The notes below the pieces were generated by a model that saw only the letters and a program-made list of their open reading frames with translations, ran no database searches and was not told the DNA's origin. A DNA stretch of 64,000 nucleotides from Candidatus Thorarchaeota archaeon (GTDB lineage Archaea > Asgardarchaeota > Thorarchaeia > Thorarchaeales > Thorarchaeaceae), in contig DAOVDG010000001.1 of assembly GCA_030669595.1 (NCBI GenBank), positions 6,047 to 70,046 on the forward strand. Direction: 5' to 3'. How positions within the stretch are numbered: position 1 is the stretch's first letter; each line of letters begins with the position of its first letter. The position numbers and the translations under genes were made by a program. Of this stretch, positions 4,146 to 30,849 are shown piece by piece.

Positions 4146-4654
4146 TTTTCAGCCTCTTGCTTTTCTATGAGATCCTTGAATCCAGTCCGCTCCATGATGG
4201 TCTTCAAGTCATCCAATGCATCCTTGTGCGAGTGTACTGTGGGCGGGACCTCATCCAGACCCAGACTCACGCGTTTCTCCCGGTTTGCAGTATTAATTGG
4301 AACTGCGTGGCCGGTCTCCAAAAGCTTCATTGATGCTCTCCGGTGTTCTGGGAGCATGAATCCCTTTTCCGCTGCCATGTTTCTCATTATGATTATCGCA
4401 TCAGTGACCTTGATTTGGCGTGGACAACGCTCCAGACAGGTATGGCAGGTCGCACAGAGCCACAGGTTGGGAGAGCTTAGCACTTCCTCCTTGAGTCCAA
4501 GTAACGCCTTTCTAATGAGCTCACGGGTTCTGAAGGCAGTTCGGCGTCCACTGGGGCATACACTTGAGCAGGTCCCACACTGAATGCAGGTTCTTATCCT
4601 ATCAGCCCCTGCTTTCACAATCTCATCGACAAAAGCGTGGTCGACCTTCTCCAA
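4142..4654 (-). CDS. hdrC: heterodisulfide reductase subunit C (paralog 1)
   Basis: Two 4Fe-4S motifs, CIQCGTCSSVCP and CATCHTCLERCP. HdrC-like length of 170 aa. Confidence 0.9.
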   Translation of the reverse strand: MEKVDHAFVDEIVKAGADRIRTCIQCGTCSSVCPSGRRTAFRTRELIRKALLGLKEEVLSSPNLWLCATCHTCLERCPRQIKVTDAIIIMRNMAAEKGFMLPEHRRASMKLLETGHAVPINTANREKRVSLGLDEVPPTVHSHKDALDDLKTIMERTGFKDLIEKQEAEK

Positions 4655-6554: not shown

Positions 6555-6560
6555 TTCGGT

Positions 6561-12235: not shown

Positions 12236-14044
12236 TCATGAATGGATGTGGATGGTCAGGTCATAACCGCCCCCATAGTTAGTACCACATTGCATTGTTA
12301 GCCGCAGGTAATACATACCTGGCGATGCTTGGAACTGTCGGTATTCAGTTCTCTCATATGCCCTAAACGAGAATAACCAAGTGGCACCTTTGTAGACTGA
12401 CAGTTTCATATGCAGTTCATCCTTGGGTGTCAACCAGATCTCCACATTGCAGCTGGCACCGACCTCGAAGCTGAACCAGTCTTTATCCGCCCAAACTTCT
12501 TGATATCCCCAAATACCTTCATCGTAGACGTTGAAATCTGCATCCGGACCAAAACCGAGGTGAGTTGCGATTGACTGTGAATCTCCCGCATCATCCTCTT
12601 CCAGAAAGATATCTGCCCAAGAAAGCGTGTCTTGCTTGTAGATTCTGGCCCCGTCTATGGTGGGTTGGCAAGAGCTCTTGCTTATGGCGTATTCGTAGCA
12701 ACTCCAGAAGTTGAATCCGTTTGCCGCCTTATCGAAGAAACAGTCACAGAAGTCCCGCGTGGGTTCTTTTAGCGCCCTACCATCCCAACCAATCGCGCAT
12801 TGAGCTCCTCGCTGAAGAAAACCCTCAACGATGCTTGTGTGGACTGGGTACCATATTCCTGTGTCCTTATCTTCCCAATCGTCCGCCGCAGACCAACATG
12901 TGGAGATGAATGCCAACTTCATGGAGCTGAAGACACCCGGTTCAGGAGGTAGGTCCACAGGCAAGATTGGATCCGAACATCCGTACTCACCGATTCCTGT
13001 ATACAAGAAGGTCTTTCCAAGTACCTCTCTCCAGAATCCGCTACCATGACCGAGATGGAAGACAACCTCGCCGTACGGGAACAACTGAAGCTCTTGTGAC
13101 CTAGCAAGATCCTCATGGTACCATGCATAGGCACCAGAGGGAAAGCTGGTGGCAGTTTCGAATCTTCTGTGTACTCGGTGGGCACACTGATAGGTGATTT
13201 CAATGCCAGGGTCGCTCACGAAGGTGAACTTGCTGCCTGGGGGTTGTTCAAGAGAGCTATCAACGAAGAGAATCTCGGATGTTGTTGCACTGATCCAGTA
13301 CTCCTCTGTTCCGGAATCTAGTACCCATGCAAGGTATGTTTTACCTTCTACGTGGACTATCTCCAACTGAGTGCTGAAAACTTTCCCATTTGCTCTACCC
13401 TGAACAGTGTCGATTGCTTCTTTTACGCTTACTTCGGGTTTAGTGTCAATCACGACTTTATGCCAGTGACTTGCGTAGCTGTAGACCTGCTTCCCATTCG
13501 GATCCATTGAGATCCGAATAAAATCGCCTCTCACAGGGATATCATTTATTGTGTGCTTGAAGGAGAGAGTCCAACCATCAGAGGTTTTTGTCATGTCAAC
13601 CGAGTTGTCTTGTTGAGGAAGGATTACAAGACCCTTATACTCGATATGGCTGAGAAAACCGAATGCAGTGGCCCATGCATTCGAAAGAGCTACTGACTCA
13701 GGAGGATAGGATTCTACATCACAAACCTTGGTTGAGTCGAGAAAGTACCGAAGCCTTAGAGATGATGGGTCCAGTTCAACTTGAATTAGCTGGCGGCTCG
13801 TGGTTTTCCACCTCACAGCCCAGAGTTCCTCTTGCCAACCAGCATCATAGACGAGTGAGATACCCTCTAAACGAGCGTTGGCTGGCGGGTCGGCAAGGTC
13901 TTCCGCTATTGCCCTTATCATTCCTACTTCTTCTTGATTCAATTGGCCAGAGAACAGCATACCCTGGTCCATTGAAGACAACACCTGCATTGTCAAGAAA
14001 GAAACCATGACAAACACCAGAACCAGTTTCCTTGTTGCCTTCAT
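12236..14044 (-). CDS. secreted clan-CD (caspase/gingipain-like) cysteine peptidase with C-terminal PPC (pre-peptidase) domain
   Basis: Signal peptide MKATRKLVLVFVMVSFLTMQVLSS. FHLGHGSG is followed about 40 aa later by AFISTCWSAA, which is the His-Gly then Ala-Cys dyad spacing of clan CD. The C-terminal DKDWFSFEV...YYLRL resembles the PPC DxDWYxF motif. The start was moved to the internal Met at 14044. Confidence 0.5.
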   Translation of the reverse strand: MKATRKLVLVFVMVSFLTMQVLSSMDQGMLFSGQLNQEEVGMIRAIAEDLADPPANARLEGISLVYDAGWQEELWAVRWKTTSRQLIQVELDPSSLRLRYFLDSTKVCDVESYPPESVALSNAWATAFGFLSHIEYKGLVILPQQDNSVDMTKTSDGWTLSFKHTINDIPVRGDFIRISMDPNGKQVYSYASHWHKVVIDTKPEVSVKEAIDTVQGRANGKVFSTQLEIVHVEGKTYLAWVLDSGTEEYWISATTSEILFVDSSLEQPPGSKFTFVSDPGIEITYQCAHRVHRRFETATSFPSGAYAWYHEDLARSQELQLFPYGEVVFHLGHGSGFWREVLGKTFLYTGIGEYGCSDPILPVDLPPEPGVFSSMKLAFISTCWSAADDWEDKDTGIWYPVHTSIVEGFLQRGAQCAIGWDGRALKEPTRDFCDCFFDKAANGFNFWSCYEYAISKSSCQPTIDGARIYKQDTLSWADIFLEEDDAGDSQSIATHLGFGPDADFNVYDEGIWGYQEVWADKDWFSFEVGASCNVEIWLTPKDELHMKLSVYKGATWLFSFRAYERTEYRQFQASPGMYYLRLTMQCGTNYGGGYDLTIHIHS

Positions 14045-14433
14045 TTGCAACCCCTTGAAATGTACTTTAGTTCGTCCTTTCATAGTGATCATTCTTCCGA
14101 TACTTCGCAACGATTATGCCGCACTGATTGATTCCCTAGAAGGATATGTTTGTCCAACTCGAAATGAGTGGTAACCCCCTAGCACAGATTATTACATACG
14201 CTAAAGCGCATTTAACCTACGAGAGCGTCAGCGGAGCAGAACCACCCCTCCTAAGGACTTTCTTGAGGGCGTTCGATTAAGCTAGAGAGGGGCAGTTTTC
14301 CCGGCACCCCAGAACATGTTCTCCCCGCAAGGCTGGCGCATCATCAAGACTCAGTGTAGTGTACTACCTTAACATATGGCCATGCATATTTTCCCCGTGT
14401 TACAACACTATTTGAGAAGGAACCGGGTGGTGA

Positions 14434-14550
14434 GCATGGCCGCATGGAGTGGACCGCTCTAACCCCGAGGAGTTTGGTCTTGCAACACACCTGCAATACT
14501 TGCAGAGGAAAAGCCAGCCTAACTGGGAACGGCTCGGGATAAAGGTCTAA
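14434..14550 (+). pseudogene. hdrB: remnant of an hdrB 3' end (about 30 codons)
   Basis: The translation ends NPEEFGLATHLQYLQRKSQPNWERLGIKV*. This is nearly identical to the C-terminus of hdrB at 6561..7481 (NEFGLATHLQYLQRKSQPNWGRLGIET*). Homology and reading frame both stop upstream at a TGA at 14431. Confidence 0.6.
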
Positions 14551-14986
14551 AATCATAAGACGCCAGAACAAAGGATTGGTTCAATCAGGCTCCATGCACT
14601 GAATGTGGTTTTTCCTGAACTGCCTGCATGAGAGCTTGAACATCCTTCTCAGTCAGTTCCAGACAGCCTGGCGCTTCCGCACACACCGGACATCGTTCCC
14701 GGATTCTCGACAGATAGACTCGGGTGTAGAGCCGGGTGGCTTTCATAGCTCTGATATGTTATCCACGTAATATTAAGTCCCACTGGTCTTGATTCTTCAA
14801 TATCGTAAATTGGCGCCAATCGAATACAATCCTTTTGCCATCTTCTATGGTGCGTTCGTTGGGCGTCGGTCCAAACGTGTTCTGGTCACGATTATGGATG
14901 AATATGCAAGATAATTCCCTTCTGCCACTAGTTGCACCGAAGATAAGAATGAGGGAGTATAATGCTCTCTTGCACTAGATCTGCTA

Positions 14987-16894
14987 TTAATGAGTCAATG
15001 GCAACAACAAAACCACACTAGTTCCTTGCTGATGATCCCCCTTAACACGGTCCTTAATCCGGACTCTTCCTCCATATCTATCAGCAATTCGTTTCACGAG
15101 GGTAAGACCAATCCCAATCCCTCTTCCTTCTCTGTTTCCCATTCTGGTGAGCACACTCTCTTTGACCGAGTCGCTCATTCCACGTCCTCTGTCCTCGAAC
15201 CTCATTTGCAGAAACGCTCCGTCATCTTCCGTGCGTTCTGTCTGCACATCAATCTCAACTCGTTCGCGCGGGTCTGCCTTCACAGCGTTGTGTAACAGAT
15301 TGAAGAACATGTCCAGAAGGAATTCATCGGCGATGATGTCATACTCTCCAGTGGTCAGGTTGGTCGAAAATATGATCTCCTTGCCGGGTAACGAACTTCT
15401 CACAGTTGCCATGGCCTCTATCAGGACTTCATATGGGTCTGTGGGGATAAGGTTCGTGTCCTGTTTCGAAGTGCTGGCAAGTTTCTTAACATTAACAATC
15501 AAGGCTGCACTTCTCTTTGTCTGCTCAAGAGCGGACTCAGCAAAAGCGATGAGATGGTCAGGAAGATGATGCTCGCTGAGAATAATCTCCAGACTTACCA
15601 TGATGCCCTGTTGCATATTCGCCAAATCATGAGCCATCAGGTCATTGTAGAACTCCGCCTGAGCCACAGCCCTCTCAAGTGCTTCCTCTGCAAGCTTTCT
15701 GTCTGTTATATCGCGTGCCACTCCTAGAATACCCGTTGGTCTATCGTTCTCATCTCGTAAGAAGACTCTTGACATCTCGAATCTGCGGAGTGTGCCACTT
15801 TTGTCATATAGATCAATCTCCAGCGGAGGTGCATCATACCCATCCTTTCCGACAGTTTCTTCAAGATGGAAGGATTCTTCCAATGCATCCTCGATTATTT
15901 CGAGAAATTGTTGGGGCATTGCATCGCTGATGGGCATAGCTAGCGCCTCTTGTACAGTATATCCCAACATGTCTTTAACAGAAGCACTAACATAGGTGAA
16001 GTTCAGGTTCAGATCAACAGTCCAGATCACATCCTTGACGTTCTCAGCAAGTATCCGGTATTGCTGCTCGCTCACACGAAGCGCCTCTTCAGCACGTTTT
16101 CTGTCAGTGATGTCTGAGAACACAACCTGCACTGCTGGCTCTCCCTGATAGGTTATGACTGATGCAGCCACCTTCACATCGATGGCGGTGCCATCTAGAC
16201 TGACCCACTTTTCCTCGATTGCTTCAACAGAGGCCTCTCCCCGGTACATGGCTTGAACTCTTTCAACAACCTCGTCTCTAGAATCTGTGTGGATAAAATC
16301 AATGACCGCCCTCCCAATGTAATCGTCAGATGATTCCTGACCAATAATCTTCAGCGCTGACTGATTGGCATAGATGATCTTCCCTGACCTGTGGACTGCA
16401 ATGCCAAGGGGTGAGTTCTCAACCAGTGTACGATATCGTTCCTCACTCTCTTCCATTGCTTGCATAGCCTTCAACATCTCAGTCACGTCCCTTGTCACGC
16501 CAACATAGAACTGAGGTCTATGATCATCATCATAGAGAGCAAAGACTGTGATAGCAATCTCGAGCACTCTCTCATCATATGTTGTACTCTTGACATTCCC
16601 TCTGAAACTCCCTTCTGAGCGAAGTGTGTCAAACACTGAGGAGTATATGTCTTCTCCAAGATGAATAGCTGGAGTTTTCCCACTGAGGAACTCATCGGGA
16701 AAACCGAGAAGGGTCCTATGAGCGGCATTCTGCTTGATGTACACGCCTTCCGAGTTCAGAATAGCAATCGCATCATTTGAGCACGTGAAGATGTCCTCGT
16801 ATAATGTTTCATGAATCGTGCTATTGCCAGTCGACTTACTATTGTCAAGGTTCTTCTTTCGTTGGGTACCTTTCTCTCTTGGTTTGCCAGTCAT
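14987..16894 (-). CDS. multi-PAS-domain sensor histidine kinase
   Basis: At least three PAS-like segments. H-box (HDLANMQQGI) and HATPase region (DRGRGMS...GIGIGL). No adjacent response regulator. Confidence 0.85.
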   Translation of the reverse strand: MTGKPREKGTQRKKNLDNSKSTGNSTIHETLYEDIFTCSNDAIAILNSEGVYIKQNAAHRTLLGFPDEFLSGKTPAIHLGEDIYSSVFDTLRSEGSFRGNVKSTTYDERVLEIAITVFALYDDDHRPQFYVGVTRDVTEMLKAMQAMEESEERYRTLVENSPLGIAVHRSGKIIYANQSALKIIGQESSDDYIGRAVIDFIHTDSRDEVVERVQAMYRGEASVEAIEEKWVSLDGTAIDVKVAASVITYQGEPAVQVVFSDITDRKRAEEALRVSEQQYRILAENVKDVIWTVDLNLNFTYVSASVKDMLGYTVQEALAMPISDAMPQQFLEIIEDALEESFHLEETVGKDGYDAPPLEIDLYDKSGTLRRFEMSRVFLRDENDRPTGILGVARDITDRKLAEEALERAVAQAEFYNDLMAHDLANMQQGIMVSLEIILSEHHLPDHLIAFAESALEQTKRSAALIVNVKKLASTSKQDTNLIPTDPYEVLIEAMATVRSSLPGKEIIFSTNLTTGEYDIIADEFLLDMFFNLLHNAVKADPRERVEIDVQTERTEDDGAFLQMRFEDRGRGMSDSVKESVLTRMGNREGRGIGIGLTLVKRIADRYGGRVRIKDRVKGDHQQGTSVVLLLPLTH

Positions 16895-17483: not shown

Positions 17484-17531
17484 TAAACGTTTTTACAGGC
17501 TTTTCAGACGGACGGTTCACCTACCCGCGGA

Positions 17532-20500
17532 GTGAACGCTGAAATGGCAGACGCATCATCAAAACCGGTTGTTATCATCGGCGCTGGGATAGCAGGGATG
17601 CGAGCCGCACTCGACCTTGCGGATATGGGAGTCAAGGTCTTTCTAGTCGAGAAGAATGCAAGCATTGGAGGACATATGGCTCAATTGGACAAGACATTTC
17701 CAACTCTGGACTGCTCCATCTGCATCCAAGGGCCTTGGATGGTTGACTGCTCCCGTCATCCGAACATTGAGATCTTAGTGCACTCTGAAGTCACCAATGT
17801 TTCAGGCACTCAAGGTAACTTCAAAGTCAAGGTATTGAAGCGCACTCGACGCGTTGACCCCGTGAAGTGCACTGGCTGCGGAGAATGTATGCGTGTCTGT
17901 CCTATCGAGATTCCGAATGAGTACGATTTGGGACTGATGATGCGCAAGGCGGCCTACATACCTTTCCCACAAGCAGTGCCCAATGTCGCAACAATCGATA
18001 TTGAGAACTGTATCCGATGCATGGTCTGTGTGAAGAGCTGTAGGGCAGAAGCAATCGATTTTGACATACCTGATGAAACAGTCGAAATTAGCGCGGGCTC
18101 AATCATAATTGCCACTGGCTTCAAGATGCTTGATGCCTCGACTGTTCCGGAGTATGGCTATGGAGCACTTCCCAATGTTGTAACAGCCCTAGAATATGAG
18201 AGGATGGTCTGCGCAAGTGGACCAACTGGGGGGGTAATCATGCGGCCCTCCGATGGACTCGAACCTCGCAGGATTGCATTTGTCCAATGTGTCGGTTCTC
18301 GCGATGTAAATCATTGCGCCTACTGCTCAAGGGTCTGTTGCACCTATGCCACTAAGGAAGCCATGATCACAATAGAGCATGATTCGAATGTCAAGATAGA
18401 CATTCTCTACAACGATATGAGGGTCTTTGGCAAAGGCTTCGAAGAGTTCATTGTGAGGGGAAAAACCGAGTACGGCATTAACTACGTGCGGGGACTCCCT
18501 AGCGACATAGGCGAAGATCCATCTACTCATGATCTGCTTCTTCGTCACACCGATGAAACGGGACACAAAGTGATTGAGGACAGATATGACCTTGTGGTGC
18601 TATGCCAAGCAATGGTCCCAAATGACAACACCGACTTGATGCAGATGCTTGGCATACATACAGACAAGTACGGTTTCATAGACGCTGACGGTGACACGAC
18701 AGAATGCATTGAAACTGGAGTTCCAGGTATCCATATGTGTGGGGCATGCAATAAGCCAAAGGACATCCCCGAGTCGGTCGCTGAAGGCAGCGCTGCCGCT
18801 GCACTGGCAACACTGGACATAGTCCTGCCCAAGTCCAGTGATACTGAGGCGATTACGGAGGTTGACCTCGAGCTAGCGGCGGGTGAGCCGAGGGTTGGGG
18901 TGTTCATCTGTTCCTGTGGTATTAACATAGCCGGCTATGTTGATGTGACTGAAGTAACCAAATACGCCGCAACTCTACCGAGTGTGGTTCACGCTGAAAA
19001 TCTGCTCTATGCATGCTCATCCGATGCTCAGGAAGTGATTAAAGACACTATCAGGGAACATCAGCTGAATCGTGTTGTCGTTGCATCGTGTACTCCAAGA
19101 ACACACGAGCCACTGTTCAGGGCGACGCTGGTAGAGGCTGGACTCAACAAATACCTTTTCGAGCTTGCCAACATTCGAGAACACTGCTCTTGGATACACA
19201 TGGGAATGAAGGATGAAGCCACCTCCAAGGCGATGGATCTGGTGAGGATGGCTGTTTCAAAGGTCATACTGTATCAAGCACAGGAAGAGGCAGTGGTCAG
19301 CGTAGAGCCGGCTGCTCTCGTAGTTGGCGCTGGAGTTGCTGGCATGGCGGCAGCAGAAATCATTGCTGGCAAGGGTTTCAAGGTATATCTTGTTGATAAG
19401 GAAGATAGTGTCGGAGGACTGTTGAACCAGCTGCCCACAGTCAACTTCGACCGTGTTTCCAGTCAGGGAATTATTGATGAATATGAAGAACGGTTGAATT
19501 CTAACCCTCAAATCGAGCTTCTTCTCAGCTCGAAGGTTGTGAATGTCAAGGGTGCGATAGGCGATTTTCAAGTGACCACGCGGAGCGGAAAAAAGAATAA
19601 GACCCTGAACGTCGGAGTGGTCATAGTGGCAACTGGCGCAGTCGAGCTTCAAGAGAAGGGACTCTATGGTCTGGGAAAGATGCCGGAAGTCATTACGCAA
19701 AGCCAGTTTGGTCAACGACTTGCGGCAGACAGTGGCATCACTGATGGAGACACCTTCATGGTGATACATTGTGCTGGGTCGCGGGAGGAAGAATCCCTTG
19801 AGGGCTCACGGACGTGGTGCTCTGGAATCTGCTGTGATGTTGCTCTCAATCACACGCTAGAACTCCTGGAAAGGTATCCTGCATCACACGTATTCCACCT
19901 CTACAGGGACTTGAGAGTGTCATACGATGGGGAGGACAGGTATCGTGAAGTCAGACAGAAAGGCGCTGTCTTCATCAAGTATGATAGGGACTCGCCGCCA
20001 GTGGTGAAGAAAGGGAAGAACAAGGTGATCAAAGTCACAGTTCCCGACATGGCTTTCGGGACAAATCTTGTTGTGGAGGTGGACCATGTGATACTTGCCA
20101 CGGCAATGATTCCGCCTGAGTCCAACAAGCAGATTTCTGAGTTGTTCAAGGTGCCAATGAATATGTCGGGCTTTCTGATGGAAGCACATCCCAAGCTCAG
20201 ACCAATCGACTTCGCGACTGATGGTGTGTACGTGGCCGGTTGTGCAACTGCACCCAAATCAATACAACAAGCCATCGCGCAGGGCCGAGGCGCGGCTGCA
20301 AGGGCGCTCATTCCACTTGTCAATGGAACACGAAGTGCTGAGGCGATAGTTGCCACAGTAGACCCAGAGGTCTGCGTGGGCTGTGGCACTTGCGAGGTGA
20401 ACTGTGTATACAGCGCAATCGAGGTCGTACCCGGTGACGGCAGCCATGACTACGCAGTCGCAAATCCGGTCCTCTGTCAAGGATGTGGAAAATGCGGGGC

Positions 20501-20999
20501 TTCATGTCCCGCAGGTGCTATCACGATGAAGCACTTCACAGACGATCAGATAATGGCACAAATTCGTAGTGCACTCGAAGACATGCCTACAGACCAGTCA
20601 CGGATTCTTGCAATTGTGTGTACTTGGTGTTCCTATGCTGGTGCCGACAGTGCTGGTGTTTCGAGGCTCCAACAGCCAACGACAGTACGTGATATTCGCA
20701 TTATGTGTACTGCCAGAGTAAGCGTGACACACATTCTTGAGGCTTTTAGACTCGGGGCCGATATGGTCTGGATTTCGGGCTGCCACTTCGGCGACTGTCA
20801 TTATGTTGACGGGAATCTTGCATTTGATAGAAGATTTCAGATTGCCAAGCGGATTATCGAGAAAGCAGGTTTCGAACCCGAGCGGCTTCAGTTCACACAA
20901 ATAAGCGCCAGTGAGGGGTCAATCTGGGCGGAGAAGGTTAAGGAGCTGACCAAGATCGCTGATAGACTGGGGCCAAGCCCGTTGAGACCAAGGAGATGA
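17532..20999 (+). CDS. hdrA: giant fusion protein: HdrA-like FAD/FeS module, then a canonical HdrA, then an MvhD domain
   Basis: Two GxGxxG FAD sites (VVIIGAGIAGM, ALVVGAGVAGM). An inserted ferredoxin (CTGCGECMRVCP...CIRCMVCVKSC). HdrA N-domain motif RVGVFICSCGINIAGYVD in mid-protein. C-terminal ferredoxin (CVGCGTCEVNC...CQGCGKCGASCP). Terminal MvhD-like segment (ILAIVCTWCSYAGAD...ISGCHFGDCHY). Confidence 0.9.
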   Translation: MNAEMADASSKPVVIIGAGIAGMRAALDLADMGVKVFLVEKNASIGGHMAQLDKTFPTLDCSICIQGPWMVDCSRHPNIEILVHSEVTNVSGTQGNFKVKVLKRTRRVDPVKCTGCGECMRVCPIEIPNEYDLGLMMRKAAYIPFPQAVPNVATIDIENCIRCMVCVKSCRAEAIDFDIPDETVEISAGSIIIATGFKMLDASTVPEYGYGALPNVVTALEYERMVCASGPTGGVIMRPSDGLEPRRIAFVQCVGSRDVNHCAYCSRVCCTYATKEAMITIEHDSNVKIDILYNDMRVFGKGFEEFIVRGKTEYGINYVRGLPSDIGEDPSTHDLLLRHTDETGHKVIEDRYDLVVLCQAMVPNDNTDLMQMLGIHTDKYGFIDADGDTTECIETGVPGIHMCGACNKPKDIPESVAEGSAAAALATLDIVLPKSSDTEAITEVDLELAAGEPRVGVFICSCGINIAGYVDVTEVTKYAATLPSVVHAENLLYACSSDAQEVIKDTIREHQLNRVVVASCTPRTHEPLFRATLVEAGLNKYLFELANIREHCSWIHMGMKDEATSKAMDLVRMAVSKVILYQAQEEAVVSVEPAALVVGAGVAGMAAAEIIAGKGFKVYLVDKEDSVGGLLNQLPTVNFDRVSSQGIIDEYEERLNSNPQIELLLSSKVVNVKGAIGDFQVTTRSGKKNKTLNVGVVIVATGAVELQEKGLYGLGKMPEVITQSQFGQRLAADSGITDGDTFMVIHCAGSREEESLEGSRTWCSGICCDVALNHTLELLERYPASHVFHLYRDLRVSYDGEDRYREVRQKGAVFIKYDRDSPPVVKKGKNKVIKVTVPDMAFGTNLVVEVDHVILATAMIPPESNKQISELFKVPMNMSGFLMEAHPKLRPIDFATDGVYVAGCATAPKSIQQAIAQGRGAAARALIPLVNGTRSAEAIVATVDPEVCVGCGTCEVNCVYSAIEVVPGDGSHDYAVANPVLCQGCGKCGASCPAGAITMKHFTDDQIMAQIRSALEDMPTDQSRILAIVCTWCSYAGADSAGVSRLQQPTTVRDIRIMCTARVSVTHILEAFRLGADMVWISGCHFGDCHYVDGNLAFDRRFQIAKRIIEKAGFEPERLQFTQISASEGSIWAEKVKELTKIADRLGPSPLRPRR

Positions 21000-21006
21000 T
21001 GGCTAA

Positions 21007-21543
21007 TTGACTAAAAGCTGGGGCACTTTCACATCCTTCAAGGGAACCACCATTGAGATTGCCGCTCCTGACTTCACAGAAGTGGTCAAGAAACTGACTG
21101 GGGGAAAGGACCTGACAGCATGCTTTCAGTGCACAAAGTGTACTGCTGGATGTCCAGTCACTGAAAAAGTATCCATCCAAGTACACGAAATCATGAGAAT
21201 GCTTCTCTTGGGCATGAAAGAAGTTCTTGAAACCGACATGATTTGGCGATGCACATCTTGCTACACATGCCAAGAGCGATGTCCTCAGGGCATTGATGTA
21301 ACAGACATCCTGATTGGTCTAAAGAACTTGGCATACGAAGATGGCATTGGTCCGGATGCTTACCGAGAGAATGCCAAGAGCGTCCTAGAATCAGGTTTCG
21401 CGTATCAAACCTCAGGATTCAGAAGGAAGAAGAGGGATGCAAAGGGTCTCCCGGCGCTGCCGGAGGCAAACATGGCGGAAGTGGAGAAGCTAGCAGAGCT
21501 AACAGGACTCAAGGCCTTGTTGGAAGAGGATGAAGCAAAATGA
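21007..21543 (+). CDS. hdrC: heterodisulfide reductase subunit C (paralog 3)
   Basis: CFQCTKCTAGCP and CTSCYTCQERCP motifs. Immediately downstream of the hdrA fusion. Confidence 0.9.
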   Translation: MTKSWGTFTSFKGTTIEIAAPDFTEVVKKLTGGKDLTACFQCTKCTAGCPVTEKVSIQVHEIMRMLLLGMKEVLETDMIWRCTSCYTCQERCPQGIDVTDILIGLKNLAYEDGIGPDAYRENAKSVLESGFAYQTSGFRRKKRDAKGLPALPEANMAEVEKLAELTGLKALLEEDEAK

Positions 21544-22442
21544 CCAAGAACAGGACCCGAGAGAAACGGTTCGCCTTCTTCCTAGGTTGCGTGACTCCGT
21601 TTCGCGAGGTGAGCTACGAAACAGCCTCAAGACGTGTTTGTGAGGAACTGGGAATTGAGTTGGTGGACATGGACGGAGTCAATTGCTGTGGCTTGCCAAT
21701 TGAGGCAATTAACCGAGACATGGCGCTGTCTATGGCGGCTAGAAATATAGTAATCGCAGAAGAGATGGGTCTTGATATTGTCACAATATGCTCTGGTTGT
21801 GCAGGTGCTCTCACGAAAACCAACGGTATCATGAAAGAGAACTCGGAGGTTCGGAATCAGATTAACAAGTACTTGAAGAAGATTGGCCGAGAGTTCAAGG
21901 GTACGATAGAAGTCAAGCATTTTGCCAGAGTACTGCTTGAGGACATTGGAATCGAAAAACTGAGGAAGCTCATCAAACACCCCTTAACAGCGCTCAGAAT
22001 TGCCGGTCACTACGGCTGCCATGTCCTGAAACCCGCTGCTCACATGAAGTTCGAGAATCCAGAAGACCCGACTTTCTTGCATGAGCTGATCGAATTGACT
22101 GGTGCTACTGATGCGCGATATGAGGGTGAAAAGGACTGCTGTGGAGGTATGGTCGTAGGTGTCGATACGGACATACCTCTGAGTCAAGTTCGAAAGAAGA
22201 TGAACCATGTCAAAGAAGCTGGAGCACAGGCGCTAGTGACAATCTGTCCCAGCTGCCACCTGATGCTTGACTCTAATCAGGAGCGGGCTGGCAAACCATT
22301 CGACGAAACCTACAACATGCCGGTCCTTCATTATCCGCAACTCCTAGGACTTGCCATGGGCATCCCCCCCGAGGAACTGGCCTTGGATGAATTGAAGGTG
22401 AAGGCTGACGAGGTCCTTTTGGCTATCAAGGGCTTATCCTGA
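21540..22442 (+). CDS. hdrB: heterodisulfide reductase subunit B (paralog 3)
   Basis: CCG domains (CCGLPIE...CSGCAG and CCGGMVVG...CPSCHLM). 4-nt overlap with hdrC. Confidence 0.9.
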   Translation: MTKNRTREKRFAFFLGCVTPFREVSYETASRRVCEELGIELVDMDGVNCCGLPIEAINRDMALSMAARNIVIAEEMGLDIVTICSGCAGALTKTNGIMKENSEVRNQINKYLKKIGREFKGTIEVKHFARVLLEDIGIEKLRKLIKHPLTALRIAGHYGCHVLKPAAHMKFENPEDPTFLHELIELTGATDARYEGEKDCCGGMVVGVDTDIPLSQVRKKMNHVKEAGAQALVTICPSCHLMLDSNQERAGKPFDETYNMPVLHYPQLLGLAMGIPPEELALDELKVKADEVLLAIKGLS

Positions 22443-22459
22443 ATAAAATGTGTACATCA

Positions 22460-23626
22460 TTAGATGAAGCGTTTCATTAGCTCCTCTACTATGTGGTCGA
22501 TGTTTTCAGCAGTGACACCAAGCGCATCATAGGCCTCTTGGGCACGAATAGCTCTCAATGGAGCATCCATGTCTTTCAGGGTTGAGAAGACTCCAATTCT
22601 TCGGCCTATCTGGTACAGACGCTGTTTCTCGGGTTTCATCGCAAGGAACGCCCGTAATGGGTCGAGCATCTTCTCTTTGTCTTTGGGGAGAGTTCCTTCC
22701 ACTTCTGAGAACAGATTCAGTATGTGGTCGCTCTTAACAACACTTGTGATTCCTTTCAGGTTCTCAATCAGCTTAAGGAGTTCACCCACTACCATCATAT
22801 CTGTGCATCTCTCAAAGCGCCCATCTATGCATTCCTTCCAGAGTGGTGCGACGATTGGGATTGCCAGCTGTCTGAGTCGTATGAAATCCGGATTGATCTG
22901 ATTCAGCGCATCTGCGGTTTCTAGTGCATGTTCTTCTGATAATCGTACTCCCCCGAGACCTGGCATAACGTATTCTGAGAGCTCCAATCCTGCTCTCTTG
23001 GCTTTCAGGCCTGCACTAACATGAATGGCCTTAGTCGCACCTTTCTTGACCAGCTTCAACACGTTGTCAGAACCGGACTCGAGACCTACATGGACTCTAT
23101 CTAAGCCTGATTTTCTTATCGCCTTCAATTCCTCCTCATCTATCCTTGCTAGTGTGCTTGAACGAGAATAGGATGTCACACGATTCACGAGAGGAAAGCG
23201 GCTTCTAATGTGCTTCAGAATCTCAATCAATTCCGAGGGCCGCACTGTCAGACTGTCTGCATCCTGCAGAAAAATGGAACTCATTCCAGCTCTGAACCAT
23301 CTAAAGGCGCTATCAAATGCCGTCCATTCCCCTGACTCAAGATTGTCAGTTGCGTTCCTGACTTGCGCTATTGGCAAGCCATCGTGCTCATCGGCAATCC
23401 CTTGGAGGATTCCCACACATCTGTAGACTAAGTCAATGTCCTTCTTCACGTGGTCTACTGAACGTTTCGAATACCGTGCCCCCTTGTATACCGGACAAAA
23501 GGTGCAGCGATTCCACGGGCAGTTCCTAGTAACACGCAGGAGGAGACTATGCGCCTCGTTCGGGGGCCGTATGGGCCCCTGTTCAAAACCGGAATAAGAA
23601 TGACCACGTGGTGGAGTTTCTGTCAT
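22460..23626 (-). CDS. radical SAM domain protein
   Basis: CPWNRCTFCP is a Cx4Cx2C variant of the radical SAM cluster motif. Convergent with the hdrACB operon. Confidence 0.65.
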   Translation of the reverse strand: MTETPPRGHSYSGFEQGPIRPPNEAHSLLLRVTRNCPWNRCTFCPVYKGARYSKRSVDHVKKDIDLVYRCVGILQGIADEHDGLPIAQVRNATDNLESGEWTAFDSAFRWFRAGMSSIFLQDADSLTVRPSELIEILKHIRSRFPLVNRVTSYSRSSTLARIDEEELKAIRKSGLDRVHVGLESGSDNVLKLVKKGATKAIHVSAGLKAKRAGLELSEYVMPGLGGVRLSEEHALETADALNQINPDFIRLRQLAIPIVAPLWKECIDGRFERCTDMMVVGELLKLIENLKGITSVVKSDHILNLFSEVEGTLPKDKEKMLDPLRAFLAMKPEKQRLYQIGRRIGVFSTLKDMDAPLRAIRAQEAYDALGVTAENIDHIVEELMKRFI

Positions 23627-23708: not shown

Positions 23709-25046
23709 TTACAAGTTCTTGATGATCTCTTCTCCAAATGCACTCGTGGAGATTGGCTCCACTGTCGGTTTCAGTTGCCGCGCGATATCGTACGTGACCT
23801 TCTTAGACTCAACCGCCCTAGAAACTGCGGTCTTGATCATCTCAGATGCCTCGTTCCATCCCATGTGTTCCAACAGAAGACATGCAGACAAGGTGATAGA
23901 ACCTGGGTTGATTCGGTTCTTTCCGGCATGCTTCGGAGCGGTTCCATGTGTCGCTTCGGCGAAGAAAATATCATCGCTGAGATTTGCACCGGGAGCAAAC
24001 CCAAGTCCACCAACTTGAGCAGCCAATTGGTCTGAGAGATAGTCACCATTGAGGTTAGGCAGCGCTGCGACTTCATACTCACGAGGTCTCAGAAGCACTT
24101 GTTGGAACATCGCATCCATTATGCGGTCATTCACAAGGATCTTTCCGTCAGCGTAGGCCTTCTCTCTGTCGCCACCGTACTTGTCGTTCAGTTCCTTTTC
24201 AGTAACGATTTGGTCTCTGAATTCATTGATGGCAACTTCATAACCCCAGTTTCTGAACTGGCCTTCGGTGGCTTTCATGATATTACCTTTGTGACAGAGA
24301 GTCACCACACGCCTCTTGTGGTCAATGGCATACTGAATTGCTTTTCTGACCAATCGCTTGGTGTTCTCGGGGGACATTGGTTTCACAGAGATGCCCGCAG
24401 AAGACCGCAAGCTATCGGAGTCCGCTGGCACATTCCATTCAGTTCTGAGGAAATGTATGAGCTTCTGTGTCCTCGCAGTTCCCGGATAGCCCTCTATGCC
24501 TGCGTATATGTCCTCTATGTTCTCTCTGAAAATCACCATATCTATTGCATCGGGATCTTTGACCGGGGCCGGGACACCTTTGATGTGCCACACAGGTCTA
24601 AGACAGACAAACAAGCCCAATGACTTGCGGATGCCGACGTTTATCGAGGAGAAGCCCTTACCTATGGGGGTTGTGCATGGCCCCTTGATCGCTAAATGGT
24701 AGTCCCGAACGACCTTCAGTGTGTCATCGGGCAAATAGGCCTTTCTCTGGTCATCAGGGCTGAGTGCCTTAAGCTCCTCATCCGTAACCTCAGGGGAATA
24801 AAGGTTTCTCGCCTTATCGCCGGCATAAATCTCGAACCATTCGAACTTCCGCTTCCTGTCGTATGCCTTCTCTACTGCGGCGTCCACGATCTTCATCATT
24901 ACCTTAGTAATCTCAGGGCCAATGCCATCTCCCTCAACCCAACAGACTATGGGATTGTCGGGAATATTCCATTGACCATCCTTGACTGTAACTTTCTCTC
25001 CCTTTGAGGGTGGAACTAGTTTCTCGTACTTTGTCATTACATTCAC
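23709..25046 (-). CDS. icd: NADP-dependent isocitrate dehydrogenase
   Basis: Collinear with bacterial-type IDH, for example EGDGIGPEIT, NLNGDYLSDQLAAQVGGLG and ATHGTAPK. Confidence 0.9.
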   Translation of the reverse strand: MNVMTKYEKLVPPSKGEKVTVKDGQWNIPDNPIVCWVEGDGIGPEITKVMMKIVDAAVEKAYDRKRKFEWFEIYAGDKARNLYSPEVTDEELKALSPDDQRKAYLPDDTLKVVRDYHLAIKGPCTTPIGKGFSSINVGIRKSLGLFVCLRPVWHIKGVPAPVKDPDAIDMVIFRENIEDIYAGIEGYPGTARTQKLIHFLRTEWNVPADSDSLRSSAGISVKPMSPENTKRLVRKAIQYAIDHKRRVVTLCHKGNIMKATEGQFRNWGYEVAINEFRDQIVTEKELNDKYGGDREKAYADGKILVNDRIMDAMFQQVLLRPREYEVAALPNLNGDYLSDQLAAQVGGLGFAPGANLSDDIFFAEATHGTAPKHAGKNRINPGSITLSACLLLEHMGWNEASEMIKTAVSRAVESKKVTYDIARQLKPTVEPISTSAFGEEIIKNL

Positions 25047-25052
25047 ACTCCT

Positions 25053-26891
25053 TCATTTCGAAGCGTATAGTATCTCATCCCACGGCTGTCGATACAGCGC
25101 GGCACGTTGGCGTTTCTGGTCGAATATGTGCCCCATCATCCCGATTGATCTCCCAAGCACAAAGAGCCCGTTCAAGACCTCTGTGTCCAAGACATCTTGT
25201 TTTTCTTCAAGTGTTAGGTCAAGATTCTCCATCAGGTCAAGGAAGCAGATTCCAATGCAACCGTCCACATTGAGAATCAAGTTATTCCTCTTTTGTGTGG
25301 TCAACTTCTCGACCTCAAGAGCATAGTCTAGGTATGGGTGCTTCGGGAAGTTCTCATTTACGAACTTTTTCAGCAGCGTAACGCGGATATCCGGATTCTG
25401 AACTGACTTGATTCTATGGCCAATTCCTGGGATGTTAATGCCTACAACGTCCTTCATGTAATTAATGAAGTCCGGTGGATGCTTTCCGGAATCCAAAGCC
25501 ATTTTGAAATACTTGGCAGCATCGGAGATAGCACCGCCGAATCTTGGGCCTATCGTCAATATACCACTTGCCAGTGACGCCATCAAATCCTTTCCAGCTC
25601 GCGCAGTCACAATGGCGTTGTGAGCGCCCGATACGGCTGGGCCGTGGTCCGCAGTCAACTTCAGCACTAGTTCGATGTACTTTGCGGCAAACGGAGGCAA
25701 CTCCTTCTTCAGCCAGAGCAGCCCAATCACGTACCCAAGAGAGAGCTCTTCACTGATTATCTTATCAATCGGAACTCCATTGTACGTGAGGATGTCACCC
25801 CTCTCGTTAGAAATGGTGACTACCACGTCTGTCGGTCTTCGAACAATCCCTTGAACTGCAGCTTTTCCATAGTCCTGAGGAATCTGTGGGGGCTCAAAGT
25901 CCTCTAAGGGCTCTATCTTCCCTTCGGCCTTCAATTTCTCAAAGGTTTCACGTATCTTGTCACCGAAAGTGTCGTATGATTCAGGGACAATAATTCCGAC
26001 TTCAGCAAGCGCTTTATTCTTTGCGTCCGCTGTTTCCATATCACTCCCGGCCATTGCACCGGCGTGACCGAATTGAACGCCTGCTGGGAATATCTTGGAA
26101 GAAGTACCTGTCACCCACATCACGAGGGGTTTCTTGACACGACCATCTTTCACGGCCTCGACAATCGAGTACTCGTCCATGCCTCCAATCTCACCCAAAC
26201 AAACAATCATCTTCACCTGTGGATTAGCCTCGTATCGAAGGATGTGGTCGATGAGCAAAGATCCAGCGTACCGGTCTCCGCCAATTGCAATGCCCTCTAG
26301 TATTCCGTCTGTGTTTTGGGATATCATGAAGTTCATTTCATTGCTCATACCGCCGGACTTGGAAACGAAACCAACGCTGCCTGGTCGATAGAGCTTTGAT
26401 TTGATGATGTTCTCTATTGTGCCTGCTGTATTGGCAATCTTGAAGGCGCCTGCTCGAATTCCACCGACAGTAGCGGGTCCGATGATTATCTTATTCTTCT
26501 CTTTTGCGAGCTTGATGAGCTCTCGGCTTTGTCGCTCTGGCATTCCTTCAGCAATAATGACCAAGACCCGAATGCTCTCAGTTTCCAAAGCCTCTTTCGA
26601 TGTTGGATGGGATGATCGGAACGACGAGAAGTTGATTAGGACATCTGCTGTAGTATGATTCTTTGCGGCAAGCTCCAGCGTCTTGTAGATAGGAATAACA
26701 ATCTCCTTGCCACCCCAGAAAACCTTGTGGTATCCGATTGCCCCTGCTTGAGTGGGCCGGATTATCGCAGCAACACTAGGCTTGTCCCTCTTGCTGACAA
26801 AATCAAAGTCCAACATTCGCTGGATTGCGTTCCGCTGGAATCCGTAAACAATCGCTTGGGAATCTCTATTGAATAGTTCATAGTCTTCCAT
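25053..26891 (-). CDS. aclA: ATP-citrate lyase alpha subunit
   Basis: Succinyl-CoA synthetase alpha-like region with the phospho-His loop FGHAGA. The C-terminal citrate synthase-like domain has GHRIKS. The 612 aa length is typical of AclA. Confidence 0.85.
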   Translation of the reverse strand: MEDYELFNRDSQAIVYGFQRNAIQRMLDFDFVSKRDKPSVAAIIRPTQAGAIGYHKVFWGGKEIVIPIYKTLELAAKNHTTADVLINFSSFRSSHPTSKEALETESIRVLVIIAEGMPERQSRELIKLAKEKNKIIIGPATVGGIRAGAFKIANTAGTIENIIKSKLYRPGSVGFVSKSGGMSNEMNFMISQNTDGILEGIAIGGDRYAGSLLIDHILRYEANPQVKMIVCLGEIGGMDEYSIVEAVKDGRVKKPLVMWVTGTSSKIFPAGVQFGHAGAMAGSDMETADAKNKALAEVGIIVPESYDTFGDKIRETFEKLKAEGKIEPLEDFEPPQIPQDYGKAAVQGIVRRPTDVVVTISNERGDILTYNGVPIDKIISEELSLGYVIGLLWLKKELPPFAAKYIELVLKLTADHGPAVSGAHNAIVTARAGKDLMASLASGILTIGPRFGGAISDAAKYFKMALDSGKHPPDFINYMKDVVGINIPGIGHRIKSVQNPDIRVTLLKKFVNENFPKHPYLDYALEVEKLTTQKRNNLILNVDGCIGICFLDLMENLDLTLEEKQDVLDTEVLNGLFVLGRSIGMMGHIFDQKRQRAALYRQPWDEILYASK

Positions 26892-26898
26892 TCTCGCA

Positions 26899-28176: not shown

Positions 28177-28213
28177 TTTTTTCTCTCCAATGTGGAAACA
28201 ACTTATGACCGGT

Positions 28214-30276: not shown

Positions 30277-30849
30277 CTAACCAAGCTCACCACGACCATA
30301 GAAGAGTTCCCCAAGCCTCTTCATTGCATCACGGACACATTCCTTCTTGCCGCTCACTTGCAGGTGTCTATCACCATCGAGTGTTATCAATACGCTACAG
30401 TCCTCCGCAAGCTCTGAAACTATCTCCACTGGAATCTCGTCGGGTAACCGGATTCGGAAGAAGCTCACGTCCTTTTCTCTGGGCAAATCAGAGATGGGCG
30501 TCGGTGGGTCCTCAGACGCTACCTCTCCCCGTCCGTGAATGGCATCACCGAATCTTGTTTCCCAGGCTTGTCTATATTGAACACCATCCTTCTCTTCTGC
30601 CCAGACCATCAGGGTTTCTCGAAGTGCCTGGACCTTTATCTCAATTTCCTGCTGAAGATCGGCATCGCACTGCTCAGGCTGCTTGATCTCACTGCCGAAT
30701 GACCTCAAATACTCGATGACCATCTTGCTATTTCTTAGATCTGCATAGACGAGGTCTGGAATGAAGACTCCCTTCGACCGCAGCTCTCCAAGCAGATTGT
30801 TCAAGACCATCCATCCTGCGTGTAGGTCGTCAACTGACACCAATGACAA
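30277..30849 (-). CDS. hypothetical protein translationally coupled to the giant hdrA paralog
   Basis: 190 aa, acidic, no Cys motifs. Its start abuts the stop of the upstream giant hdrA gene (30850). Confidence 0.5.

Follow-up and report, generated by a model that had tools for sequence, protein, structure and literature searches.

The fusion gene and its operon

The locus is a three-gene operon of an Asgard (Thorarchaeota-like) archaeon, in which an hdrA-hdrA-mvhD fusion is followed by hdrC and hdrB, all on the + strand of the window (the whole 64,000-nucleotide stretch of DNA analysed). As a mechanical ORF, the first gene extends from a GTG at 17,532 to 20,999 (1155 aa, zero in-frame stops). 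The ATG at 17,544 is its likely start, because public gene calls use this codon and a GGAG is located at 17,529-17,532; the gene would then occupy 17,544-20,999 and encode 1151 aa, as does P0001, which is 100% identical and called from that ATG. Residue numbers below follow the 1155-aa frame (GTG start). The hdrC gene (21,007-21,543, +) has a TTG start and encodes 178 aa, and the start of hdrB (21,540-22,442, +; 300 aa) overlaps its end by 4 nt. HdrC contains a ferredoxin dicluster domain with both [4Fe-4S] motifs intact; it scores 96 bits against 5odc_C and 113.8 bits against TIGR03290, under the 160-bit cutoff of this model. HdrB is comprised of two CCG domains with all ten Cys residues (C17/C49/C50/C84/C87 and C160/C200/C201/C236/C239), matches 8rvu_b over its full length (280 bits) and reaches 306.5 bits against TIGR03288, under the 345-bit cutoff. 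Both the gene order and the ORFs are as given in the initial annotation.

A gene of this kind could arise from an assembly join, a frameshift, or read-through across adjacent hdrA, hdrA, and mvhD genes, and other genomes (L006, L015, and L066) do carry module 1, module 2, and mvhD as separate ORFs. However, the frame is uninterrupted, the composition is even along the gene, an identical 1151-aa protein recurs on three contigs, each assembled independently (Logan assemblies L001-L003), and every cofactor Cys is invariant in 111 clusters of full-length homologues (1100-1230 aa), which are all from Asgard archaea wherever the source names the organism. An artefact or pseudogene is refuted by this evidence and has a negligible probability; the ORF contains neither a stop nor an assembly join.

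Complementary parts of the two HdrA modules

Domain content, residue pattern, conservation, and gene context were all observed directly. Module 1 (aa 10-440; 17,559-18,851, +) is an HdrA thioredoxin-reductase-fold (TrxR) FAD core, which aligns to 5odc_A residues 146-511 at 437 bits, is 51% identical to the core of Methanothermococcus thermolithotrophicus HdrA (5odc), and, in an AF2 model, superposes on the core HdrA chain 8rwn_A with a TMt of 0.92; the earlier description of the N-terminal 440 aa as HdrA-like is thereby confirmed. The glycines of its dinucleotide motif G-x-G-x-x-G (G17/G19/G22) are kept in 109/111 homologues, while the Cys pair (C61/C64), the flavin-pocket residues (E223/R224/K275/D411), and the HA4-type cluster Cys (C253/C265/C269/C270) are invariant (111/111). 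E223 and K275 are the equivalents of E356 and K409, the literature markers that separate bifurcating from non-bifurcating HdrA flavins (PMC12054007, PMC9430772). Module 1 also holds the sole inserted ferredoxin domain of the whole chain (aa about 104-185; 17,841-18,086, +), with two [4Fe-4S] motifs whose eight Cys (C113/116/119/123 and C160/163/166/170) are invariant in 111/111; it has neither an N-terminal FeS domain nor a C-terminal ferredoxin. A variable linker (aa 441-451; 18,852-18,884, +), devoid of consensus residues, connects the modules, and pLDDT falls below 50 in this region (residues 433-445 in 1151-aa numbering) of a whole-chain AF2 model with a pTM of 0.86.

Module 2 begins with an HdrA N-terminal FeS domain (aa 452-590; 18,885-19,301, +), which aligns to 5odc_A residues 3-158 (182 bits, 59% identity) and whose four Cys (C460/C462/C495/C520) are invariant in 111/111; the peptide originally quoted for it, RVGVFICSCGINIAGYVD, is found at aa 453-470. 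The TrxR-fold domain that follows (aa 591-935; 19,302-20,336, +) is 33-37% identical to 5odc HdrA and retains the dinucleotide fold (G599/G601/G604, D622, and G628/G629), the HA4-type Cys (C747/C763/C767/C768), and the motif EAHPKLR at 884-890; the dinucleotide-binding fold and all four Cys are kept in every homologue. The best full-length HdrA structural match in the AF2 model is 5odc_A (TMt 0.77), assigned to module 2 on the basis of 34% identity. The Cys pair is absent, its positions being S643 and G646, and so is the inserted ferredoxin (profile positions about 231-312 are skipped and all eight Cys columns are gaps). The equivalents of E356/R357/K409/D546 are G727/Q728/N773/S910, and the two marker positions vary among the Asgard homologues (E in 24/111, K in 11/111). 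A C-terminal ferredoxin domain (aa 936-1020; 20,337-20,591, +) with two [4Fe-4S] motifs (C948/951/954/958 and C982/985/988/992) aligns to 5odc_A residues 516-652 with 43% identity. Module 2 had been taken for a complete canonical HdrA, a description that fails, as both the inserted ferredoxin and the conserved Cys pair are missing; its flavin site is probably structural or non-bifurcating.

The MvhD domain reported at the C-terminus is indeed present (aa 1021-1155; 20,592-20,996, +; Cys C1030/C1033/C1059/C1084/C1089), with a match to MvhD/FlpD PF02662 at aa 1025-1147 (143 bits). In ungapped alignment to 9sw2_D and 7bkb_F, C1033, H1085, and D1088 are equivalent to M. marburgensis MvhD Cys16, His68, and Asp71. 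In the cryo-EM model of the methanogen enzyme, these three residues are turned towards the Cys pair (PMC13580544, PMC12350162).

In total, seven [4Fe-4S] sites and one [2Fe-2S] site are predicted for the chain, and the two modules complement each other: module 2 alone has an N-terminal domain and a C-terminal ferredoxin, and module 1 alone has a Cys pair and an inserted ferredoxin. The same split is found in 111/111 Asgard homologues and in 85/86 double HdrAs of other phyla.

Relatives and origin of double HdrAs

HdrA family models are the best matches of either half. The top-scoring NCBIfam model for the whole chain is NF040770 (HdrA2-type; 1117 bits vs a cutoff of 1100), a cutoff passed only because the two modules, at 490 and 483 bits each alone, add up. 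The two halves are mutually only about 24% identical, whereas module 1 shares 36-51% identity with module 1 of distant phyla; on these identities, the chain joins two HdrA classes that separated long ago, and the tandem HdrA duplication proposed in the initial annotation is not supported. For type II HdrA, it has likewise been argued that two different HdrA classes were fused, as opposed to one being duplicated (PMC12054007).

The architecture, initially regarded as unusual, is widespread and already published, with double HdrAs described for ANME archaea, acetogens, and Asgard archaea. Across 80 genomes from a wide range of phyla, 85/86 double HdrAs follow this module order, and such proteins occur in Desulfobacterales, Chloroflexi, Planctomycetes, Thermoplasmata, Bathyarchaeia, Methanocellales, and others; the MvhD-fused version was seen only in Asgard archaea. 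This version has also been catalogued, as 'cluster 77' (mSystems 2024, PMC11237513), in which 17 of 54 duplicated-HdrA fusions have two HdrA domains and a C-terminal MvhD, in Thorarchaeota and Lokiarchaeota. These fusions have the same architecture and come from the same lineages as the present one; the work is a catalogue, without per-module residue analysis, mechanism, or gene context. Up to six long copies per assembly were reported there, and two long double-HdrA copies lie in the present window.

ANME HdrA3/HdrA4 (PMC9012536) and type II HdrA (PMC12054007) resemble the present protein in having two TrxR modules per chain and a complementary distribution of the N-terminal domain and the Cys197 site, although both lack a fused MvhD. 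In ANME HdrA3/4, the module with the N-terminal domain was described as the first, the reverse of the order here (PMC9012536), and in type II HdrA, K409 and E356 were reported in both modules, whereas here they are confined to module 1 (PMC12054007). In acetogens, MetFV-HdrCBA-MvhD clusters encode an HdrA of 942 aa in Sporomusa ovata and 1487 aa in Moorella thermoacetica (PMC9430772). The S. ovata protein has the same order, an E/K-bearing TrxR-like module followed by an MvhD-like N-terminal domain, a second TrxR module, and a C-terminal ferredoxin, and its second TrxR module lacks the inserted ferredoxin and E/K, as does module 2 here. However, five [4Fe-4S] clusters are predicted in it, compared with seven plus a [2Fe-2S] here, so its module 1 would have no inserted ferredoxin; MvhD is encoded by a separate gene rather than fused, and the cluster is linked to metFV, which is absent at the present locus (PMC9430772).

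All cofactor modules are homologous to those of methanogen HdrABC-MvhAGD, Fdh-Hdr-Fmd, and Elp-Hdr (PDB 5ODC, 7BKB, 8RVU, and 9SW2), with 33-59% identity per domain. In the methanogen enzyme, two identical HdrA chains pair symmetrically, giving two arms and two active flavins, and MvhD is a separate protein; here, one asymmetric chain takes the place of that dimer. Production of the methanogen substrate, CoM-S-S-CoB, would not be expected in an Asgard archaeon. The HdrA-MvhD fusion of Methanosarcina acetivorans HdrA2B2C2 shares the C-terminally fused MvhD; it has one TrxR module and one FAD, as opposed to two modules here (PMC5296606).

Predicted electron transfer in a probable single-chain HdrA dimer

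[quoted passage not shown] For fused HdrAs, Chadwick et al. (2022, PMC9012536) suggested that one chain provides both halves of a heterodimer. Published accounts differ in details: Chadwick et al. took Cys197 to coordinate the N-terminal cluster of the partner, in the 2026 cryo-EM paper the Cys pair holds an unknown ligand (PMC13580544), and PMC12350162 locates HA3 in the C-terminal portion of the arm. The mobile-arm model accounts for the domain split of the present protein. On balance, the product of the first gene appears to be an asymmetric HdrA dimer built into one chain, to which the MvhD adaptor is attached, and, since the domain split matches the mobile-arm model, the chain is predicted to be one complete bifurcating (or, reversed, confurcating) unit and not two. 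A search of the PDB found no solved double HdrA structure.

By mapping onto the methanogen model, we infer an electron path in which module 1 would be the catalytic core, comprising FAD, the K275/E223 pocket, the C61/C64 pair, the HA4-type cluster that would feed HdrC and HdrB, and the inserted ferredoxin that would pass on the low-potential electron. Module 2 would represent the partner protomer carrying the mobile arm (N-terminal FeS domain, C-terminal ferredoxin, and tethered MvhD [2Fe-2S]) that serves the module 1 flavin. A donor module would first dock on MvhD. The high-potential electron might then travel from HA4 of module 1 via HdrC to the two noncubane clusters of HdrB, where a disulfide would be reduced. 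The low-potential electron would pass onto the shuttle cluster of the arm, reach the ferredoxin inserted in module 1, and leave on ferredoxin. The chain would associate with HdrB and HdrC at 1:1:1; this ratio is likewise inferred, as are substrate, donor, and reaction direction. Among the window ORFs scanned, none encodes a donor module or a candidate disulfide substrate nearby.

The first idea of the initial annotation was that each module runs its own bifurcation, which would double the capacity per polypeptide. Both modules retain G-x-G-x-x-G, the acidic residue after strand 2, the GG motif, and the HA4-type four-Cys cluster; two bifurcation reactions have been suggested for type II HdrA of methane-metabolising archaea, with its markers in both modules (PMC12054007), and two further hdrCB pairs are located within the window. 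However, the marker-pocket residues of module 2 are replaced and variable family-wide, the chain has a single N-terminal domain, Cys pair, inserted ferredoxin, C-terminal ferredoxin, and MvhD, and the operon has just one hdrCB pair. Because there is only a single set of arm and ferredoxin parts, the module 2 flavin, for which no serving arm is left, would have neither an input path nor a low-potential exit in the structural model. The suggestion of two bifurcating flavins per protomer is thus not upheld: a second bifurcating flavin is unlikely, and bifurcation by each module on its own is highly improbable.

A comparison with QmoA and QmoB of sulfate reducers, also raised initially, is valid at the domain level: both are HdrA homologues that differ from each other, and the second, QmoB, has an MvhD-like domain, so that their domain sum equals the present layout (PMC3333476). 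By this analogy, module 2 flavin and its HA4-type cluster would form a real, non-bifurcating redox site, which might let in electrons from a further donor, NAD(P)H or F420H2 for example, or serve as an additional exit towards another HdrC-like partner. The strict conservation of the module 2 Cys and FAD fold speaks for such a two-flavin relay, as do the split pairs (a module 1-only gene, then a module 2-MvhD gene) that adjoin the triple fusion in Loki and Hel genomes, the extra hdrCB pairs in the window, and the use of F420H2 without a hydrogenase by M. acetivorans HdrA2 (PMC5296606, PMC12054007). On the other hand, QmoA and QmoB are two separate proteins rather than one chain, and their partner is an AprAB-linked membrane subunit, QmoC (HdrC fused to HdrE), whereas HdrC and HdrB here are soluble. 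No QmoC-type membrane subunit is present (the 178-aa HdrC scores 51.7 bits on qmoC, cutoff 300), and zero Apr-type domains were found among the ~45 window ORFs scanned. On the isoalloxazine side, module 2 shows eroded, variable residues, a point against its flavin being catalytic and conserved, and the analogy predicts little. Such a relay is considered unlikely.

With regard to the single-chain dimer, strict conservation of the module 2 fold and HA4-type Cys would not be expected if module 2 were a structural partner alone, and is a hint of an additional redox role. In addition, module 2 of double HdrAs from other phyla often retains E356 (57/86) and K409 (62/86), so that the one-sided loss of these markers may be specific to the Asgard clade.

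Organization and integrity of the hdrA-hdrA-mvhD operon

The operon is comprised of three genes on the forward strand. The first (17532-20999) is a frame of 1155 aa, uninterrupted from its GTG, in which two HdrA modules with a thioredoxin reductase (TrxR) fold (module 1, aa 10-440; module 2, aa 452-1020) are joined to a C-terminal MvhD domain (aa 1021-1155). It is followed 8 nt further on by hdrC (21007-21543; 178 aa) and then by hdrB (21540-22442; 300 aa), which overlaps the preceding stop by 4 nt. The operon of an HdrA-HdrA-MvhD fusion with hdrC and hdrB, as proposed in the initial annotation, is confirmed with two corrections, one to the start codon and one to the description of module 2 as a complete canonical HdrA. 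Public gene calls use the ATG at 17544, which gives 1151 aa, and a GGAG is present at 17529-17532; therefore, the real product is probably the 1151-aa form. Residue numbers below refer to the 1155-aa frame, in which the peptide quoted in the initial annotation corresponds to aa 453-470.

An assembly join, a frameshift, and a pseudogene were excluded. The frame contains no in-frame stop, three separately assembled contigs (L001-L003) encode an identical fused protein, a protein search retrieved 111 full-length homologues of 1100-1230 aa, and base composition is even along the gene. The closest homologues (70-75% identity) belong to Candidatus Thorarchaeota, and those at 46-50% identity to Loki-, Hel-, Hermod-, Hod-, and Promethearchaeota. 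Genes for the archaeal exosome, the proteasome, and SBDS are also found in the window; the source is an Asgard archaeon and not a methanogen.

HdrB contains two PF02754 stretches with all ten CCG Cys required for two noncubane [4Fe-4S] clusters, and it aligns over its full length with methanogen HdrB (280 bits). Its score against TIGR03288 (306.5 bits) falls below the equivalog cutoff of 345.15, which implies CoM-S-S-CoB specificity. HdrC has both [4Fe-4S] motifs and reaches 113.8 bits against TIGR03290 (cutoff 160). Such sub-cutoff scores fit an unknown disulfide substrate, as is assumed for Asgard Hdr in the literature.

Distribution of HdrA elements between the two modules

Each half of the fused protein, when searched alone, has HdrA-family models as its top match. 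Aa 13-376, containing the FAD core and an inserted ferredoxin, align with residues 146-511 of HdrA (5odc_A) at 51% identity, so the HdrA-like nature suggested for the N-terminal part holds. Module 2 begins with the N-terminal FeS domain (aa 452-607, aligned with 5odc_A 3-158 at 59% identity), continues with a second, diverged FAD fold (aa ~591-935, 33-37% identity to the 5odc_A core with the ferredoxin insert skipped), and closes with the core end and the C-terminal ferredoxin (aa 880-1017, aligned with 5odc_A 516-652 at 43% identity). The MvhD domain was recovered as MvhD/FlpD at aa 1025-1147 by Pfam and NCBIfam models (PF02662, 142.9 bits; cutoff 22.3). Its C1030, C1033, C1059, C1084, and C1089 are invariant among homologues, and it aligns without gaps with MvhD of M. 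marburgensis (9sw2_D), C1033, H1085, and D1088 matching Cys16, His68, and Asp71.

Diagnostic columns were read from an alignment of both modules of the 111 homologues to HdrA. In every homologue, module 1 carries the Cys pair C61/C64 (C194/C197 in 5odc HdrA numbering), eight inserted-ferredoxin Cys, the HA4-type C253/265/269/270, and E223, R224, K275, and D411 (equivalent to E356, R357, K409, and D546); neither an N-terminal domain nor a C-terminal ferredoxin is ever present in this module. Module 2 is just as constant in the N-terminal-domain Cys (C460/462/495/520), the HA4-type C747/763/767/768, eight C-terminal ferredoxin Cys, and an E-A-H-x-K-x-R motif (aa 884-890; HdrA residues 520-526) that is lost from module 1, and it never possesses the Cys pair or an inserted ferredoxin. 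The second half is therefore wrongly described as a complete canonical HdrA: of each accessory element in the canonical HdrA dimer, the chain has exactly one copy, and these copies are distributed over the two modules. The dinucleotide-binding motif is kept in both (G17/G19/G22 with E40; G599/G601/G604 with D622). From these residues, the fused chain is predicted to hold two FAD folds, seven [4Fe-4S] clusters, and one [2Fe-2S] cluster.

K409 and E356 have been used to separate bifurcating from non-bifurcating HdrA flavins (PMC12054007; PMC9430772). In the protein studied here, they are present in module 1 only, the module 2 equivalents being G727 (E356) and N773 (K409), so flavin-site residues are indeed lost from one half. 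These module 2 positions vary among the homologues (E at the E356 position in 24 of 111, K at the K409 position in 11 of 111). Two bifurcating flavins per protomer, as initially suggested, are thus unlikely.

Structure prediction with AlphaFold2 from a 40-sequence alignment gave a mean pLDDT of 81.9 and a pTM of 0.86, with low confidence in the linker that connects the modules, in the loop immediately preceding the Cys pair, and in one MvhD loop. The best Foldseek matches in the PDB were HdrA chains, including the truncated core chain 8rwn_A for module 1 (TMt 0.92, 48% identity) and the full-length chain 5odc_A (TMt 0.77, 34% identity); the latter match is attributed to module 2, including its N- and C-terminal domains. 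No solved structure of a double HdrA was found in the PDB.

Double HdrAs in other lineages and genomic context

With two TrxR modules that are complementary in N-terminal domain and Cys pair, the protein belongs among the double (type II or fused) HdrAs. Double HdrAs with complementary domain loss have been described in ANME archaea (PMC9012536), in methane-metabolizing archaea as "type II" (PMC12054007), and in acetogens (PMC9430772), and Thor- and Lokiarchaeota are reported to have two-HdrA fusions that are extended by MvhD, a single assembly containing as many as six long copies (mSystems 2024, PMC11237513). The finding is real, and the architecture is already known. HdrA of Sporomusa ovata shares the module order and has E/K in one module only (PMC9430772), whereas in type II HdrAs of methane-metabolizing archaea K409/E356 are reported in both modules. 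What is added here is a per-residue audit, a mapping onto the mobile-arm model of 2025-2026, and the judgment on the second bifurcating flavin.

HdrA2, the HdrA-MvhD fusion of Methanosarcina (NF040770), which acts in F420H2- and ferredoxin-dependent heterodisulfide reduction, differs in having one HdrA module. The whole fused protein scores 1117.4 bits against this model (cutoff 1100), and the separate modules score 490 and 483 bits; the cutoff is passed only through double counting of the two HdrA modules. Automatic annotation would consequently name the protein "CoB-CoM heterodisulfide reductase HdrA2" in a host that is not expected to make CoM-S-S-CoB. Public names of the homologues are inconsistent and include "hydrogenase iron-sulfur subunit", "FAD-dependent oxidoreductase", and "heterodisulfide reductase subunit A".

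A scan of one genome per species returned at least 599 related stretches, and the best 80 loci, which contain 86 double HdrAs, were parsed. Among these, the order of module 1 before module 2 and the same complementarity were seen in 85 of the 86, so that, given also the published MvhD-fused form, the architecture can hardly be called unusual. Hosts in these 80 loci include Desulfobacterales, Syntrophobacteraceae, Chloroflexi, Planctomycetes, and Thermotogae, as well as Thermoplasmata/Methanomassiliicoccales, Bathyarchaeia, Methanocellales, and Asgard archaea. Module 2 retains E356 in 57 and K409 in 62 of the 86, more commonly than in the Asgard triple fusions. Most of these double HdrAs are ~940-1070 aa long and are followed by a separate mvhD gene; in some genomes (L006, L015, and L066), module 1, module 2, and mvhD are three separate ORFs, and stop-free fusion into MvhD was seen only in the Asgard loci L004, L005, and L031. 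These arrangements form a series from separate genes through a double HdrA with mvhD to the triple fusion. The initially proposed tandem duplication is rejected as a recent event, since the two halves are only ~24% identical to each other, as against 36-51% when module 1 is aligned with its counterparts from other phyla; the two modules are old paralogues.

Some of the parsed loci show further variation. An in-frame TGA at the position of Cys197, the second Cys of the pair, was observed in 30 of the 86 double HdrAs, mostly from Desulfobacterota (loci between L007 and L083, such as L016 4436-7582, L046 9839-13093, L054, L059, and L081), and fits selenocysteine at this site. Several mvhD ORFs adjoining such TGA-bearing genes are split by an in-frame stop. 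A single in-frame TGA also lies between hdrA and mvhD in L015 (10001-13990), L021 (9818-13447), and L050 (9977-13393), and in L015 module 2 also continues in frame after module 1 across a single TGA. Fusion by selenocysteine read-through at the hdrA/mvhD TGAs was considered for these three loci and found unsupported, their frequency being about that of chance. In addition, a Promethearchaeota locus (L031 9977-14920; 1648 aa) encodes a four-part fusion, with a GltD/NfnB-like insert (Fer4_20 and Pyr_redox_2, aa 157-553) in module 1 followed by module 2 and a fused MvhD. A comparable gap interrupts module 1 of a 1635-aa protein from Anaerolineae (L069 13631-18535), to which no MvhD is fused.

Within the window, the triple-fusion operon stands alone on the forward strand, flanked on the reverse strand by genes for a PAS histidine kinase and a PEMT-like protein upstream and by a radical SAM gene (22460-23626) downstream. 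A second double HdrA without MvhD (30850-33951, reverse strand; 1033 aa) shares 42% identity with module 1 and 34% with module 2, and it matches the triple fusion in module order and in the complementary distribution of Cys. At the E356 position, D is found in its module 1 and E in its module 2; K409 is kept in the former and replaced by A in the latter. It is directly followed by a DUF2096 gene (30277-30849, reverse strand). In a complete Thorarchaeota genome (L086), the triple fusion-hdrC-hdrB operon abuts this DUF2096/double HdrA pair (12887-16565); therefore, the pairing of the two Hdr loci is conserved. In the present window, TCA-cycle genes (isocitrate dehydrogenase, two ATP-citrate lyase subunits, and aconitase in a row, 23709-30247, reverse strand) intervene between them together with the radical SAM gene. 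A pyruvate:ferredoxin oxidoreductase subunit is encoded at 50-1186 (reverse strand).

Two more hdrC-hdrB pairs are divergent (3249-4654, reverse strand; 5949-7481, forward strand), with a radical SAM gene between them (4761-5837, reverse strand). Their HdrBs are 37-43% identical to that of the operon, and these pairs may serve an HdrA paralogue without its own hdrBC. The only hydrogenase in the window is a four-gene [NiFe] cluster (37263-41322, forward strand), which is best matched by the HydB/HydG/HydD/HydA sulfhydrogenase models, all below the equivalog cutoffs; it is group 3b-like and not an Mvh-type partner of MvhD. Genes for an Mvh-type (group 3c) hydrogenase, Fdh, and MetFV were looked for near the operon without success. 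A 964-aa protein with beta-propeller SBBP repeats, bacterial TSP3 repeats, and DUF7948 (8082-10976, reverse strand) is unrelated to the Hdr operon.

Unidirectional arrays of HdrA paralogues headed by the triple fusion were observed in Lokiarchaeota (L084 8001-19507) and Helarchaeota (L085 6156-17581). The order is triple fusion, double HdrA, mvhD, a 93-aa ORF, a module 1-only gene (434-438 aa), a module 2-MvhD gene (696-791 aa), and a polyferredoxin of ~740 aa, the module 1-only and module 2-MvhD genes being a QmoA/QmoB-like split pair. Genes for MTHFR and a DUF5981 protein are located ~5 kb upstream in L085.

A putative single-chain asymmetric HdrA dimer

In the mobile-arm model (PMC13580544; PMC12350162), the arm is comprised of the HdrA N- and C-terminal domains plus MvhD. 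Briefly, the [2Fe-2S] cluster of MvhD nears the partner's Cys pair, which holds a ligand, and FAD'; the high-potential electron of FAD' then passes through its own HA4' to HdrC and HdrB, and the low-potential electron passes to a shuttle cluster on the arm and from there to the partner's inserted ferredoxin. The cited papers assign Cys197 either to the ligation of the partner's N-terminal cluster or to the binding of a ligand, and they also place HA3 on different arm domains. They all concur that the arm acts in trans, and the present argument uses this point alone. For fused HdrAs, Chadwick et al. proposed that the chain supplies its own partner in a heterodimer (PMC9012536).

The division of elements in the triple fusion matches the arm model exactly, with module 1 as the served core and module 2 plus MvhD as the arm donor, and C1033, H1085, and D1088 of the fused MvhD would face the Cys pair. 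By analogy, the fused chain is probably an asymmetric HdrA dimer contained in one polypeptide, with a single site for bifurcation or confurcation. Such a one-sided dimer leaves three points unexplained: the strict retention of the HA4-type Cys and FAD fold in module 2, the presence of the E-A-H-x-K-x-R motif in module 2 only, and the lack of a donor gene near the operon. There is therefore room for a Qmo-like relay through two flavins instead, a reading considered rather improbable. The QmoA/QmoB-like arrangement put forward initially is a fair structural analogy, since QmoA and QmoB of sulfate reducers, as described in the literature, add up to the same domains. However, the analogy does not extend to the partners: QmoC is a membrane subunit in which HdrC is fused to a cytochrome b domain, whereas the HdrC here is soluble (178 aa; qmoC 51.7 bits, cutoff 300), and no Apr-type domains were detected among the window ORFs scanned.

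A further and distinctly speculative reading of the Asgard triple fusion is a minimal monomeric bifurcase. One chain would work with one HdrB and one HdrC, the symmetry being permanently broken and one flavin being catalytic. In module 2, the strictly conserved FAD fold and HA4-type cluster would have acquired another function, for example as an additional point at which electrons enter or leave. As in HdrA2, the tethered MvhD would need no hydrogenase.

In Asgard archaea, the genes for soluble Hdr complexes rank among the most strongly expressed of those for energy metabolism. A different stoichiometry and a different number of active sites would have to be expected if the long HdrAs of this group are one-sided pseudo-dimers. 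As a target for structure determination, a chain that has a single arm, Cys pair, and bifurcating flavin would avoid the two-fold ambiguity that complicates the methanogen structures. The triple fusion appears to be an attractive, uncharacterized candidate for a natural one-sided bifurcase in a lineage of evolutionary interest. Should the monomeric reading prove true, nature would offer a system with one site in which the reduction of the bifurcating flavin by MvhD could be solved, and the enzyme would also be a candidate for the principal hub of thiol/ferredoxin-coupled redox metabolism in the archaea related to eukaryotes.
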